NCBI GenBank assembly: GCA_964439255.1 | Contig: CAYTOE010000001.1 | Coordinates: 1-36,549 of the forward strand | Direction: 5' to 3' | Source of the DNA: an uncultured Aquificales bacterium | GTDB taxonomy: Bacteria > Aquificota > Aquificia > Aquificales > Hydrogenothermaceae | Length of the DNA stretch: 36,549 nt | In this document: positions 31,840 through 36,549 of the stretch, in pieces | How the letters are laid out: each line of letters begins with the position of its first letter | How positions within the stretch are numbered: the first letter of the stretch is position 1 | Position numbers and translations under genes: made by a program | Notes under the pieces: generated by a model | The model's input: the letters and a program-made list of their open reading frames with translations, nothing else | The model's database searches: none | Told to the model about the DNA's origin: nothing

Positions 31840-32721
31840 ATGTTTAAAGGCTCTTTAGTCGCTCTAATCACACCTTTCAAGGATGGTTCTATAGATAAGA
31901 AATCTCTAAAAAGACTAATAGATTTTCATGTTGAAAATGGAACAGATGCAGTTGTTGTAGCTGGAACAACTGGTGAATCGGCAACATTAACATTTTCAGA
32001 ACATGAAGAACTTATTAATCTTGCAGTTGAATATGCAGATAAAAGAATTCCAGTTGTTGCAGGAACAGGAGCAAACGCAACCCATGAAGCGATAGCTTTA
32101 ACAAAATCTGCTGAAAAAGCAGGTGCTGATGGCTCACTTCAGATAGTTCCTTACTACAACAAACCAACACAGGAAGGAATATACCAGCATTTCAAAGCCA
32201 TAGCAGAAGAAACAAACCTGCCTTTAATTCTGTACAACATCCCTTCAAGAACAGGTGTTGACATGTTTCCTGAAACATTCGCAAGGCTTTACTCAGATTT
32301 CCCAAATGTTATCGGTCTAAAAGAGGCAACAGGGAATGTTGCAAGGGTTTCAGAAACTATATCTCTTACAAACCCGGATGTTATTATACTTTCTGGAGAT
32401 GATGCTCTTACAATCCCAATGATGTCAGTTGGGGCGAAAGGAGTAATATCAGTTGCAAATAATATTGTTCCAAAAGATATAGCTGAGATGTGCAGATTAG
32501 CACTTGATGGAAAATTTGATGAAGCAAGAAAAATCCATGATAAATACTGGAAACTTTTCAAAACTATGTTTATAGAAACAAACCCTATACCTGTCAAAAC
32601 AGCCGCCTATCTTATGGGGCTTATAGATGACCTTGAAATGAGACTTCCCCTTTACTATATGAAACCTGAGAATGAAGAAAAATTAAAATCAGTCTTGAAA
32701 GAGTACGGTTTAATAAAGTAA
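31840..32721 (+). CDS. dapA: 4-hydroxy-tetrahydrodipicolinate synthase
   Basis: Shows GSLVALITPF, VVAGTTGESATL, VVAGTGANAT, QIVPYYNKP, LYNIPSRTG and GLKEATG. I chose the start at ATG 31840 (MFKGS), with GGAGGA at 31830-31835. The track start is GTG 31828. Confidence 0.95.
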   Translation: MFKGSLVALITPFKDGSIDKKSLKRLIDFHVENGTDAVVVAGTTGESATLTFSEHEELINLAVEYADKRIPVVAGTGANATHEAIALTKSAEKAGADGSLQIVPYYNKPTQEGIYQHFKAIAEETNLPLILYNIPSRTGVDMFPETFARLYSDFPNVIGLKEATGNVARVSETISLTNPDVIILSGDDALTIPMMSVGAKGVISVANNIVPKDIAEMCRLALDGKFDEARKIHDKYWKLFKTMFIETNPIPVKTAAYLMGLIDDLEMRLPLYYMKPENEEKLKSVLKEYGLIK

Positions 32722-33672: not shown

Positions 33673-34734
33673 ATGGCATTGATACCTATAATAAAACCAG
33701 AATTTGGAGCAGAAGAAGAAAAAACTGTACTTGAGATAATAAAAAGTGGTCAGATTACAAGGGGAAAATGGACATTAAAATTTAAAGAATCTTTCAGAGA
33801 TTATATAGGTTCAGGTTTCTGTCATCCTGTTTGTAGTGGAACAGCAGCACTTTATATAGCTCTAAAAGCTCTTGGCGTTAATTCCAAAGAGGATAAGGTT
33901 ATTGTTCCAGCTATGAGTTTTATGGCGACTATAGATTCTGTGATATTAGCAGGGGGAACACCTGTTGTTGTTGATATAGGGGAAGATTTTTGCATGGATC
34001 CAAAATCTCTTGAAGAAGCCGTAGAGAAGTATAGTCCAAAAGTTGTTGTTCCTGTTCATCTTTTCGGACAGACAGCAGATATGGAACCGATAAATAAAAT
34101 ATGTAAGGAAAAAGGAATATTCGTCCTTGAAGATGCAGCTCAGGCTCATGGAGCTCAGTACAAAGGAAAAAAAGCAGGTGCTTTAGGAGATATATCAGCT
34201 TTCAGTTTTTATGCTTCAAAAAATGTTCCAATGGGTGAAGGTGGAGCGATTTTAACAGAAAACCCTGATTTAGATGAAAAGATATCAAACTGGATTGAGT
34301 TTGGAGACCATCCGGCTTTAAATCTGAGAATAACAGAATTTCAAGCTGGAATTGGATACTGGCAGCTACAAAAATTAGACAATATGAATGACAGGAGAAG
34401 AAAAATAGCACATCTTTATTCCAGAGAGTTTAAAGAACTTCCTGGATTGAAAATACCAGAGGAATTTCCAGAAAGAAAACATGTTTACCATATATACACA
34501 CTTAGACACCCTAACAGAGATGAGATTGTAGAAAAGTTAATTGAAAAGGGTATAGGTGCAAGGGTTTACTATGATTACACACTCCACCAGCTGAGAAATG
34601 CGGAACATGTTGACTGTTCTTTTGCAGAAAATCTAACAAAAGAGATTTTTGCAATACCTGTCTATCCTTCATTAAAGGATGAAGAGGTGGAATATATCAT
34701 TGAAACAGTAAAAAAAGTGGTACAAAATGTATAG
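33673..34734 (+). CDS. DegT/DnrJ/EryC1/StrS-family PLP-dependent sugar aminotransferase
   Basis: 353 aa. Shows CSGTAALYIAL, EDAAQAHGA and the Lys-containing FSFYASKNVPMGEGGA, which is the Schiff-base lysine context of this family. Confidence 0.9.
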   Translation: MALIPIIKPEFGAEEEKTVLEIIKSGQITRGKWTLKFKESFRDYIGSGFCHPVCSGTAALYIALKALGVNSKEDKVIVPAMSFMATIDSVILAGGTPVVVDIGEDFCMDPKSLEEAVEKYSPKVVVPVHLFGQTADMEPINKICKEKGIFVLEDAAQAHGAQYKGKKAGALGDISAFSFYASKNVPMGEGGAILTENPDLDEKISNWIEFGDHPALNLRITEFQAGIGYWQLQKLDNMNDRRRKIAHLYSREFKELPGLKIPEEFPERKHVYHIYTLRHPNRDEIVEKLIEKGIGARVYYDYTLHQLRNAEHVDCSFAENLTKEIFAIPVYPSLKDEEVEYIIETVKKVVQNV

Positions 34735-34755
34735 AAAATAGTTAAGGGGTGAATT

Positions 34756-35232
34756 ATGGCTATAGATATAAGAACTGTTGAAGGAAGATTATCTGCAGAA
34801 GGTCTGAAATTTGCCATCATTGTAGGTAGATTTAACAGTCTTATAACTGAGAAACTTGTGGAAGGTGCTGTTGACTGTATTATAAGACATGGCGGTTCAG
34901 AAGACAGTATAACAATTATAAAAGTTCCTGGCTCATTTGAGATTCCCCTTGCTGCAAAAAGAGCAGCAAAATCAGGAAGCTATGATGCTGTTATCTGCCT
35001 TGGAGCTGTTATAAGAGGTGCTACACCCCATTTTGATTATGTCGCAAATGAAGTTACAAAAGGTATAGCCCAGGTTGCCCTTGAAACAGAAGTTCCTATA
35101 GCCTACGGCATATTAACAACAGATACTATAGAACAGGCTATTGAAAGAGCAGGAACAAAAATGGGTAATAAAGGTTTTGATGCTGCTCTTACAGCTATAG
35201 AAATGGCAAACCTTATAGATGAGATAGACTAA
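34756..35232 (+). CDS. ribH: 6,7-dimethyl-8-ribityllumazine synthase
   Basis: 158 aa. Shows [46 protein letters not shown] and [13 protein letters not shown]. Confidence 0.95.
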
Positions 35233-35666
35233 TGGGAAGATTCAGAAAAAAGGCAAGAGAAATAGCTTTAAGAACTCTATATACGTATGATATTTTAGGT
35301 GGTGGGGATATATTCCAGATTTTAGAAGACCATATAAAAGATATAAGAAAAGACCTATCCTCAAAAACTATTGAGTATGCCTATAACATAGTAAAAGGTG
35401 TTGAAGAACATTTAGATGAGATAGATAGTTTAATAAAAAATCATTTAAAAAACTGGAGACTTGAAAGACTCGGTTTCCTCGAAAGAGCTTTACTCAGAAT
35501 TGGTACATACGAGCTTGTATTTTCAAATGTTGAAGACAAAGGAAGAGTTTTTATGGATATTCTTGATTTAACAGACTGTTATCTAAATAACAAAGACACA
35601 ATAAAGTTTATAAATGGTGTACTGAGTGCCATTTACAATGATATGAAAGAGGAAGTCCCTAAATGA
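35232..35666 (+). CDS. nusB: Transcription antitermination factor NusB
   Basis: 144 aa. Shows KAREIALRTLYTYD and WRLERLGFLERALLRIGTYEL. It sits in the classic ribH-nusB arrangement. Confidence 0.9.
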   Translation: MGRFRKKAREIALRTLYTYDILGGGDIFQILEDHIKDIRKDLSSKTIEYAYNIVKGVEEHLDEIDSLIKNHLKNWRLERLGFLERALLRIGTYELVFSNVEDKGRVFMDILDLTDCYLNNKDTIKFINGVLSAIYNDMKEEVPK

Positions 35667-36400
35667 GAATAGCCTATATTTCTGATATACATTCAAACTT
35701 TTTTGCCATTGAATCCCTTGAAAAAGACCTTAAAAATGAAGGTGTCGATGAAATAAGATGCCTTGGAGACATTCTCAATTTTGGTTCAAAGCCTGTAGAA
35801 ACGCTTCAGTGGGTAAAAGAAAGATGTAGCATTATCTTAAGAGGTGAACATGATTCTTTTATAGCTGGAATAGAAGGATTTTATTTATCGAATCCTCTTG
35901 CTATAAGGGCAGCTGACTGGACTTTTGATTTTTTAAAAGATGAGGATTTTGAGTTCATAGAAAAATTACCTGTTGATTATGAGGATAAAGAGGTTATACT
36001 TACCCATGATGAACCTTCTGTTCCGGGAAGTATGGCATTTATCTCCTCTGTTAAATCAGCAAAAGACGCTATGACCTGTTACTCAGATAAAATCTGTTTT
36101 TACGGACATATTCATATTCCACTTATTTTTGTAAAGAATCTGAAAACAGGAGAAGTTTTTTTATCAGAAAAGCATGAGTACAGTCTTAAAGAAAATGAAC
36201 AGTACCTTATATCTGTAGGTAGTGTTGGACAACCAAGAGATAAAGACAAAAGGCTGTCTTACGTTATTCATGATACAGAAGAAAAGAAAATCTACATAAG
36301 AAGGATTGAATATCCTTACGAAAAAGCCGCAAAAGATATAAAAGAAAAAGGTCTTCCAGAAGTATTTGCGAATCTTCTAACAAAAGAAATTATCAGGTGA
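35663..36400 (+). CDS. Calcineurin-like metallophosphoesterase (YfcE/MJ0936-type)
   Basis: 245 aa. Metal-binding motifs appear in the expected order: ISDIHSN, LGDILNFG, RGEHD and YGHIHIP. The C-terminal tail is YPYEKAAKDIKEKGLP. The stop TGA is at 36398-36400. Confidence 0.8.
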   Translation: MRIAYISDIHSNFFAIESLEKDLKNEGVDEIRCLGDILNFGSKPVETLQWVKERCSIILRGEHDSFIAGIEGFYLSNPLAIRAADWTFDFLKDEDFEFIEKLPVDYEDKEVILTHDEPSVPGSMAFISSVKSAKDAMTCYSDKICFYGHIHIPLIFVKNLKTGEVFLSEKHEYSLKENEQYLISVGSVGQPRDKDKRLSYVIHDTEEKKIYIRRIEYPYEKAAKDIKEKGLPEVFANLLTKEIIR

Positions 36401-36406
36401 CATCCT

Positions 36407-36426
36407 CCCCTAACTTTAGTTAGGGG
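36407..36426. repeat. Perfect 8-bp/4-nt-loop hairpin resembling an IS200/IS605 subterminal palindrome
   Basis: CCCCTAAC (36407-36414), TTTA, GTTAGGGG (36419-36426). On the minus strand it is followed by AGGATGTCAC. From memory, the IS608 right end is CCCCTAGCTTTTAGCTATGGGG AGTATGTCAA. Confidence 0.5.
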
Positions 36427-36549
36427 CTTCCTGCTTCACAGAGGTATAGCTTACACGGATATAAGGATTATTTCCAAATATCCGTGCAGTGGCTTGCTCC
36501 TCTTTGAGTCGCCACTTTGCTTCGCAAATGTCCCTCTCCACAGGCGTTA
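36416..36549 (-). CDS. Possible C-terminus of an IS605 OrfB/TnpB-like protein (partial, upstream part outside the window)
   Basis: A minus-strand frame is open from the edge to TAA (36418-36416). It reads TPVERDICEAKWRLKEEQATARIFGNNPYIRVSYTSVKQEAPN*. I associate a ...KQEAP tail with TnpB C-termini. Three of its four Arg codons are CGN, whereas the window's other genes use AGA/AGG. 43 open codons alone are not statistically compelling. Confidence 0.3.
   Translation of the reverse strand, partial: TPVERDICEAKWRLKEEQATARIFGNNPYIRVSYTSVKQEAPN

Follow-up and report, generated by a model that had tools for sequence, protein, structure and literature searches.

The described systems that come closest to the locus treated here are the IS200/IS605-family elements IS608 of Helicobacter pylori and ISDra2 of Deinococcus radiodurans, the RAGATH-18 guide RNAs of IS607 TnpBs (for example ISFba1), and HgcC together with archaeal IS1341-type sense overlapping transcripts (sotRNAs). 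The locus is the end of a 36,549-nt stretch of DNA from an uncultured Aquificales bacterium (contig CAYTOE010000001.1, positions 1 to 36,549), and the whole of that stretch is called the window. Positions 36397-36549, read on the minus strand, are almost certainly the right end of an IS200/IS605-family element, in which the tail of a tnpB gene, a guide-RNA scaffold and a transposase-recognition hairpin overlap. The first-pass annotation of the window had proposed such a right end with a TnpB tail and a scaffold like that of omega RNA or right-end RNA (reRNA), and the boundary shared by related copies, the domains of relatives, helix covariation and a covariance model now support it. The class of mobile elements is abundant and well characterised, and the NCBI annotation pipeline already names the protein family. 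The locus would be one more TnpB/omega-RNA element, from thermophilic Aquificota, and it leaves the current understanding of TnpB systems unchanged.

IS608 moves by 'peel and paste' with a Y1 TnpA. Its left cleavage site (CL) TTAC lies 19 nt 5' of the left hairpin foot and is matched with the guide tetranucleotide (GL) AAAG; its right cleavage site (CR) TCAA lies 10 nt 3' of the right foot and is matched with the guide tetranucleotide (GR) GAAT (PMC3201880, PMC5934647). In ISDra2 (structures 8bf8, 8exa and 8h1j) the omega/reRNA scaffold overlaps the 3' end of tnpB and stops at the right-end boundary, and the guide comes from the flank, as proposed here. RAGATH-18 was shown experimentally to be the guide-RNA scaffold of IS607 TnpBs and is stated to be found solely alongside IS607 TnpB (PMC11061315). 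HgcC contains the right-end-like hairpin of IS1341-type tnpB 3' transcripts (PMC4615843).

Element boundary and ends

The segment differs in composition from the DNA before it. The G+C count rises from 48/150 at 36250-36399 to 71/149 at 36401-36549, in a window with 33% G+C overall, and the recount agrees with the earlier hand count. Arginine codons change as well: three of the four in the tail are CGN, against 435 AGA/AGG codons among the 454 arginine codons of the window's 30 long open reading frames (ORFs), which confirms the shift in codon use noted before. A foreign element explains both jumps at 36397, and also a phosphoesterase gene whose TGA stop lies in foreign DNA. A repeated mobile element also accounts for the end of the contig at this point.

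Ten close copies from Aquificota metagenome-assembled genomes (MAGs) and metagenomes (the window, L001, L002, L003, L005, L006, L008, L009, L011 and L018) share this 3' region. They part into unrelated flanks exactly after ...GGGGAGGATGTCAC / ...GAGGATGTCAC, which is window position 36397 and the start coordinate chosen in the first-pass annotation. The same annotation had put the segment directly after the phosphoesterase stop codon, and this has to be corrected, since the TGA at 36398-36400 sits within the GTGA (minus-strand TCAC) that closes the element. Distant copies have the terminus GUAGnUCA(C/T) at the same distance from the hairpin as the close copies. A right-end pattern scan of species-representative genomes returned two real copies, both in Aquificota MAGs, and a match in a Moraxellaceae contig (L004) that was put down to chance; it has neither the hairpin's left arm nor any tnpB. 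The parts of the right end are as follows.

36397-36549, minus strand: right-end portion of an IS200/IS605-family (IS1341-like) element, very probably, delimited by the ten-copy boundary and covariance model R1 (below) and continuing past the window edge
Minus strand, terminal part of the element: right-end sequence ...GTTAGGGGAGGATGTCAC
36397-36400, minus strand: right cleavage site CR, TCAC, the element's final four bases, 10 nt 3' of the hairpin foot, where the resemblance of the copies ends
36407-36426, minus strand: subterminal palindrome of the right end (IPR), CCCCUAAC-UAAA-GUUAGGGG, perfect, unique in the window and covarying among copies
36427-36430, minus strand: GAAG as the putative right guide tetranucleotide (GR), adjoining the hairpin foot on its 5' side as GR GAAT does in IS608

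On the plus strand the 20-nt palindrome reads CCCCTAAC-TTTA-GTTAGGGG. It occurs once in the window, and shuffled sequences give an expectation of 0. Its arms covary among the copies (CCCCTAAC/GTTAGGGG, CTCGGGTT/AACCCGAG and CCACCTAA/TTAGGTGG). The 10 nt AGGATGTCAC follow the hairpin, and the ten copies diverge right after the TCAC that closes them. A subterminal hairpin with a cleavage site at a fixed, short distance 3' of its foot, at which the element stops without terminal inverted repeats, is the arrangement of IS200/IS605 right ends, and the window shows it. The palindrome would act in two ways, as the transposase-binding hairpin in single-stranded DNA and as the last stem of the guide-RNA scaffold.

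The likeness to the right end of IS608, which the first-pass annotation had proposed, holds when published motifs and spacings are compared. In both elements the cleavage tetranucleotide ends 10 nt 3' of the hairpin foot and the guide tetranucleotide lies directly 5' of it. The bases differ, with CR TCAC and GR GAAG here against TCAA and GAAT in IS608. The last base of each is changed together (T to G and A to C), so the two changes may be compensatory. The palindrome of IS608 is imperfect, whereas that of the window is perfect.

The left end of the window's copy is outside the window. In ten related copies TTTAC stands immediately before every left end, and AAAG lies 5' of the hairpin foot about 18 nt downstream. 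The relatives have both features in common with IS608, namely (T)TTAC in front of the left end and AAAG on the 5' side of the left foot ~18-19 nt downstream. The left-flank motif of ISDra2 is TTGAT, against TTTAC in the relatives. Two related loci (L007:270-345 and L012:950-1025) have some 35 additional nt in the left-end hairpin loop, including a TTTAC; a nested insertion may have left this as a scar, or the left end may be a variant one.

The close copies L002, L003, L005 and L006 have no tnpA beside tnpB, and in this they are unlike IS608. The more distant members L015 and L017 (37-38% identical) have a Y1_Tnp tnpA immediately upstream of tnpB (1e-41 and 3e-43). The clade would accordingly belong to IS200/IS605, and the pattern agrees with the close copies being of its tnpB-only (IS1341-like) type.

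A perfect GC-rich hairpin just past a stop codon could also be an ordinary intrinsic terminator, or the segment could be part of an unrelated convergent gene after the phosphoesterase gene. One terminator-like site was found, at 36489-36512 on the plus strand; shuffled sequences average 0.4 such sites, so this single site is not notable. The hairpin at 36407-36426 is not followed by a T-run. The same 150 nt occur at many unrelated loci, attached to tnpB. Orthologous loci also exist without the segment: in L022, L023 and L024 (phosphoesterase 77-81% identical in protein) the order ribH-nusB-phosphoesterase is kept, and other genes and no tnpB follow. The multi-copy distribution and the attachment to tnpB rule out a plain terminator or convergent gene, which has next to no probability left. 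The orthologous loci without the element, together with copies in many unrelated flanks, show an insertion rather than a syntenic gene.

The TnpB tail and its relatives

The right-end element enters the window with the last codons of its gene.

36419-36549, minus strand: tnpB 3' end with the final 43 codons, ...TPVERDICEAKWRLKEEQATARIFGNNPYIRVSYTSVKQEAPN; no stop interrupts the frame up to the window edge, and its own stop TAA (36416-36418) lies in the hairpin loop

This frame is as it was first described. A 2.8-kb metagenome contig (L001) with the same flank, the sole contig found to encode exactly the same phosphoesterase protein, reaches 75 nt further into the element. There the ORF is prolonged to ...CGLVIDRDLNSAINILKIGL / GLVIDRDLNSAINILKIGL / GLVIDRDLNSAINILKIGLQKVEKTTIKNL..., which is the RuvC-III motif (DRD), and 70 codons are open. 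Relatives have full-length TnpB proteins of 434-471 aa that close with this tail. In two Aquificota MAG contigs it ends ORFs of 444 aa (about 432 from the ATG used in the codon comparison below) and 471 aa (L003).

The domain content of the relatives is that of TnpB. Pfam OrfB_IS605 matches L003 (471 aa) at 7e-15 and L002 at 5e-15, and Cas12f1-like_TNB matches them at 2.5e-13 and 1.7e-13. The NCBIfam model guided_TnpB gives 143-146 bits for L003 and L005 (446 aa), with a cut-off of 100. The best natural match in the PDB is ISDra2 TnpB (8bf8, E 4e-18), which is homologous over the RuvC/Zn-ribbon half at ~25-30% identity. The stretches GIDFG, IQEEQ and DRDLN of the relatives align to those ISDra2 stretches that hold its catalytic D-E-D residues. 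The part of tnpB within the window is the 43 residues after RuvC-III; OrfB_IS605, the Zn-ribbon/TNB domain and the D-E-D triad are seen in the close full-length relatives. The earlier assignment of the frame to a TnpB tail is thus upheld by the L001 ORF that reaches RuvC-III and by the Pfam and NCBIfam matches of the full-length L002, L003 and L005.

Homologues are numerous, with 1977 at E <= 1e-30; Persephonella, Hydrogenivirga, Hydrogenothermus, Desulfurobacterium and Thermovibrio account for many of these, which already go by the name of 'RNA-guided endonuclease TnpB family protein' or 'transposase IS605 OrfB'. Several full-length members share the window's tail including the peptide DICEAKWRLKEEQ. 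A literature search on TnpB in Persephonella found no papers.

Two of the close copies are irregular in this gene. The tnpB at L008:246-1546 is a pseudogene, broken by a frameshift into two ORFs (319 and 131 aa), in a copy whose left end (LE) and right end (RE) are both intact. At L006:1501-3720 tnpB lacks the stop in the right-end hairpin loop, and the frame runs about 300 codons past the boundary into a downstream gene starting MKGIILAGGSGTRL, a start like that of a sugar nucleotidyltransferase.

Proposed guide-RNA scaffold and known RNA families

The five helices that the first-pass annotation had listed can all be read in the sequence, and the minimum free energy (MFE) fold reproduces them. 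They are the perfect hairpin at 36407-36426, the helix CACGGATAT/ATATCCGTG with GGA/TCC at 36454-36486, the stems GTGGC/GCCAC (36489-36493/36511-36515) and TTTGC/GCAAA (36516-36520/36524-36528), and the closing stem AGAGG/CCTCT (36440-36444/36533-36537). An additional outer helix had been missed, in which CCUGU (36544-36540) pairs with GCAGG (36434-36430). The minus-strand MFE is -62 kcal/mol against -40.8 +/- 4.0 in shuffled sequences (z = -5.3), and 0/200 shuffles were as stable.

36540-36544, minus strand: helix P1, 5' strand, CCUGU; CCU GUG GAG translates to the invariant P-V-E of the TnpB tail
36430-36434, minus strand: helix P1, 3' strand, GCAGG, paired with 36540-36544; the pairing is kept in 20/20 relatives
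36533-36539, minus strand: predicted kink-turn, non-bulged strand, GGA plus the P2 5' strand GAGG, from the MFE fold and P2 covariation
36434-36444, minus strand: predicted kink-turn, bulged strand, with CCUC (P2 3'), the UGU loop and GAAG (G.A, A.G, A:G, G:U), matching the RAGATH-18 consensus gACaCGaUGAAgcAGgAA
36452-36488, minus strand: helix P3, a long hairpin of 11+3 bp in the window's copy, from the MFE fold; 8/8 consensus pairs change on both sides in the 20 relatives
36498-36533 (approximately), minus strand: 36-nt in-frame module GGGACAUUUGCGAAGCAAAGUGGCGACUCAAAGAGGA with two extra hairpins, encoding the peptide DICEAKWRLKEEQ; absent, single or double among close copies

Structure was examined in an alignment of 20 relatives, running from P1 to the right terminus, which consist of close copies and viral-contig copies down to ~31% protein identity. 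The window and the module-bearing copies were left out of it because MAFFT misplaced the 5' ends of the module copies. RNAalifold found P1, P2, the central hairpin P3 and the right-end hairpin, with compensatory change in 17 of the 22 pairs. Paired cells made up 89%, against 37-46% when partners were slid by 1-3 columns. The covariation score was 0.645, against 0.08-0.14 with slid partners, and 0/500 shuffles reached the observed value. P1 occurs as CCUGU/GCAGG, CCUGU/ACAGG and CGUGU/GCACG in the alignment, and as CUUGU/GCAAG in L053 (anchored scan only); P2 occurs as GAGG/CCUC, GACAA/UUGUC and GAGGACG/UGUCCUC.

Covariance model R1, built from these 20 relatives without the window, was scored on all window positions and has a single significant match, which covers minus-strand positions 36397-36508 with 57.8 bits and E 1.5e-12. 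The scaffold-like RNA first suggested for this segment is therefore supported both by covariation and by the model. A conserved structure lies over the 3' end of tnpB, ends at the right boundary and is followed by a variable flank, which is the layout of an omega RNA. The next best match of R1, at 32503-32561 on the plus strand (10.1 bits, E 0.58, outline CUUGAUGGA...UGAAGCAAGAA), is probably due to chance.

The protein tail also bears the mark of the RNA. PVE is encoded by CCU GUG GAG, which is the P1 5' strand plus the kink-turn, and KQEAP by AAG CAG GAA GCC CCU, which is the P1 3' strand, GR and the hairpin foot. The 'KQEAP-type tail' that had been associated with IS605 proteins is indeed a peptide conserved in the relatives, and it is explained as a translation of helix P1 and the hairpin foot. 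Where residues are identical between four intact genes, the same codon is used in 82-95% of cases over the last ~80 codons, compared with 70% in the body of the gene; such a rise is expected from an overlapping constraint on the nucleic acid, and the comparison is indicative only, as the gene pairs are not independent.

An extra small hairpin, CCUAC-GGACU-GUGGG, stands directly 5' of P1 in relatives (L001:2670-2700, L002:7147-7180, L003:5120-5150), upstream of the window's edge. It has the compensatory variants CCGCU/GGCGG in L001 and GGGUU/GGCCC in L002, so the scaffold probably reaches beyond the window.

Rfam models had been named at the outset as a check on this RNA, and the outcome is divided: no family reached threshold, and sub-threshold matches to the TnpB-associated families RAGATH-18 and HgcC were obtained. 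For RAGATH-18 (RF03064) the window scores 22 bits, L001 and L018 score 28-29 bits, and the gathering score of 44.9 is reached neither there nor in the 32 related loci. For HgcC (RF00062) the window scores 18.1 bits and L001 23.3 bits, with a gathering score of 50. The part aligned to HgcC is the right-end hairpin and the following GAGGAnGUCA. HgcC and the archaeal IS1341-type sotRNAs resemble the RNA proposed here in being sense RNAs over the 3' end of a stand-alone tnpB (PMC4615843); they differ in being archaeal, and only the 3' third aligns. Sub-threshold matches to snoRNAs were dismissed as chance.

The RAGATH-18 match spans P1, the internal loop and P2. The window strands CCUC-UGU-GAAG-CAGG / CCUG-UGGA-GAGG have C:G at -1b:-1n, tandem G.A/A.G, A:G at 3b:3n and G:U at 4b:4n. 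The same key positions are tabulated for the crystallised RAGATH-18 kink-turn (Table 1, PMC8191799), so that the sequence signature agrees both with that table and with the crystallised oligonucleotide. Outer helix, kink-turn and second helix share the consensus CCUGUGGAG...(C)N3GAAGCAGGAA with RAGATH-18. The interior differs; the scaffold here overlaps coding sequence, and the ends, target motif and transposase are of IS605 type. The scaffold is RAGATH-18-like at its core, yet it is no RAGATH-18 member by the Rfam criterion. To our knowledge a RAGATH-18-type kink-turn has not been described for the ISDra2 scaffold.

These matches raise the alternative of an IS607-family element with a true RAGATH-18 reRNA, mobilised by a serine recombinase. 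The identical kink-turn signature of the weak RAGATH-18 matches, and 82-85 bits with the NCBIfam model IS607_TnpB, speak for it, but IS200_TnpB scores higher (113-124 bits), the RAGATH-18 scores of 22-29 bits stay far under the gathering score, and no relative reaches it. IS607-family elements have a serine-recombinase TnpA, an AG-rich transposon-adjacent motif (TAM) and a reRNA apart from the coding sequence (PMC11061315). The relatives here have Y1_Tnp instead of a serine recombinase, and their left flank is TTTAC as opposed to AGGAG or GAGGG. Subterminal hairpins stand at both ends with IS608-type spacing and tetranucleotides, and the scaffold overlaps coding sequence, unlike IS607 reRNAs (PMC11061315). 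An IS607 origin is accordingly very unlikely.

A related idea is that the RAGATH-18 kink-turn core (P1, kink-turn and P2) is an older and wider omega-RNA module, which extends beyond IS607 TnpBs and also serves this clade. It is a tentative one, and we consider it rather doubtful. The distant members L015 and L017 have an IS605-type Y1 tnpA, and the core is embedded in coding sequence throughout the clade, where it may dictate the conserved PVE...KQEAP protein tail. If true, the clade would link coding-overlapping IS605 omega RNAs with free-standing IS607 reRNAs, and would provide naturally thermophilic Aquificota TnpB/RNA pairs with a TTTAC TAM. A RAGATH-18-type kink-turn in a clade with IS605-type relatives would be a small extension of the IS607-exclusive picture (PMC11061315).

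Several points weigh against the assignment to an IS200/IS605 right end with a working TnpB and guide RNA. The window holds 153 nt of the element and L001 228 nt, and the body of tnpB, the left end and TTTAC are outside. The close copies are without tnpA, so current mobility would need a transposase in trans. Rfam at gathering thresholds gave nothing relevant in the window and the 32 related loci. No sigma-70-like site was found in a promoter scan of 36000-36549; an RNA derived from tnpB would in any case have its promoter upstream of that gene. No empty site was found at the nucleotide level, the nearest orthologous loci being from other species with different C-termini. Finally, the frameshifted close copy L008 shows that the window's copy could be truncated or a pseudogene.

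The last point leads to the strongest alternative, that decay or truncation has left a mere remnant. This could be a right end by itself, a fusion of ends like a palindrome-associated transposable element (PATE) or miniature inverted-repeat transposable element (MITE), or a pseudogenised tnpB. It would be a genuine relic with no nuclease and at most an orphan RNA. In addition to the short reach of 153 nt, the frameshift in L008 and the stop codon absent from L006 fit this view, and archaeal PATE-derived RNAs of fused left and right ends are known (PMC4615843). However, none of the 43 visible codons interrupts the frame, and in L001 70 codons are open, up to the catalytic DRD. Every RNA helix is intact, with a high score in model R1, and many full-length proteins share the tail including the 36-nt module. 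The left-end motif is absent throughout the window, so there is no short LE-RE fusion within 36 kb. A remnant is unlikely, though it is a serious alternative, and the window's copy may well be intact.

The insertion, its putative guide and a variable module

The right-end element adjoins a gene of the host, and the DNA between the two roles is shared as follows.

35663-36400, plus strand: metallophosphoesterase gene of a Hydrogenothermaceae-like Aquificota genome, with its stop codon inside the element end
36377-36396, minus strand: putative omega-RNA guide segment CUGAUAAUUUCUUUUGUUAG, adjoining the element boundary on its 3' side and occurring once in the window

The phosphoesterase gene takes its TGA stop (36398-36400) from the GTGA that ends the element. 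Insertion of IS200/IS605 elements takes place 3' of their target and creates no duplication (PMC3201880), and no target duplication is visible in the flanks of L002 and L003. On that basis the plus strand of the empty site would read ...ATC AGG TAA A, the reverse complement of TTTAC + CTGAT. The ancestral stop of the phosphoesterase gene would then be the TAA of the TTTAC target, with the GTGA of the element now giving TGA at the same codon, and the host protein would be unchanged by the insertion.

The stretch would encode the final 43 residues of TnpB, an RNA-guided RuvC nuclease. The palindrome at 36407-36426 with GAAG and TCAC would be the single-stranded DNA site for a Y1 (HUH) TnpA, with cleavage after ...TCAC as judged from IS608. 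In the RNA, P1, kink-turn, P2, P3 and the right-end hairpin would follow one another and then GAGGAUGUCAC, forming the 3' part of the omega/reRNA scaffold. The tnpB transcript would be processed to the omega RNA, whose scaffold would end ...GAGGAUGUCAC and whose guide would be the next ~16-20 nt of flank, from 36396 downward. After excision by TnpA, the resealed donor site TTTAC + CTGATAATTTC... would be recognised and cut by the TnpB ribonucleoprotein, with TTTAC as the probable TAM. Repair of the cut donor site from an element-bearing copy would retain the element.

The segment at 36377-36396 is flanking host DNA, and on the minus strand it runs antisense to the phosphoesterase gene's final codons. 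This antisense position of the predicted guide is what a domesticated TnpB-like regulator of the TldR type, aimed at the neighbouring gene, would show. Any mobile TnpB element, however, takes its guide from whatever adjoins the right end. The D-E-D residues are intact in the relatives, copies with conserved left and right ends lie in many unrelated flanks, and orthologous loci are without the element; a regulator of this kind is therefore highly improbable, even more so than an IS607 origin.

The 36-nt module is a variable feature of the tail and a difference from ISDra2. Its borders are uncertain by a few bases because of the flanking GAGAGG/AGAGGAG repeats. The module is absent from L001, L002, L006, L008, L009 and L018, single in the window, L005 (1399-1434) and L011 (536-571), and double in L003 (5149-5190 and 5206-5247). 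It is found only within tnpB tails and is present in several full-length proteins. It may have arisen by slippage between GAGAGG-like repeats or by something else, and it marks where insertions can be accommodated by scaffold and protein tail. A second insertion site of the module follows another CTGTGG about 55 nt upstream, and protein P0122 has the module only there.

The module is also one of the differences between the window and L001. Between the window (33839-36549) and L001 (1-2786) the host DNA differs at 8 of 2558 positions. In the element tail 10 of 117 aligned positions differ; beyond these, the 36-nt module is an added difference and the hairpin loop is flipped (TTTA against TAAA). 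These may be two variants of the element at one site in two populations, by replacement or homing; gene conversion among paralogous copies, or assemblers joining different copies at the repeat, may also account for them. That two variants at exactly the same site in populations 99.7% identical reflect natural homing or replacement rather than an assembly artefact is a weaker possibility.

A tRNA scan gave no gene. Among the related loci, a viral contig has a tRNA gene (73.6 bits) at L027:3220-3293, some 480 nt downstream from a related tnpB.

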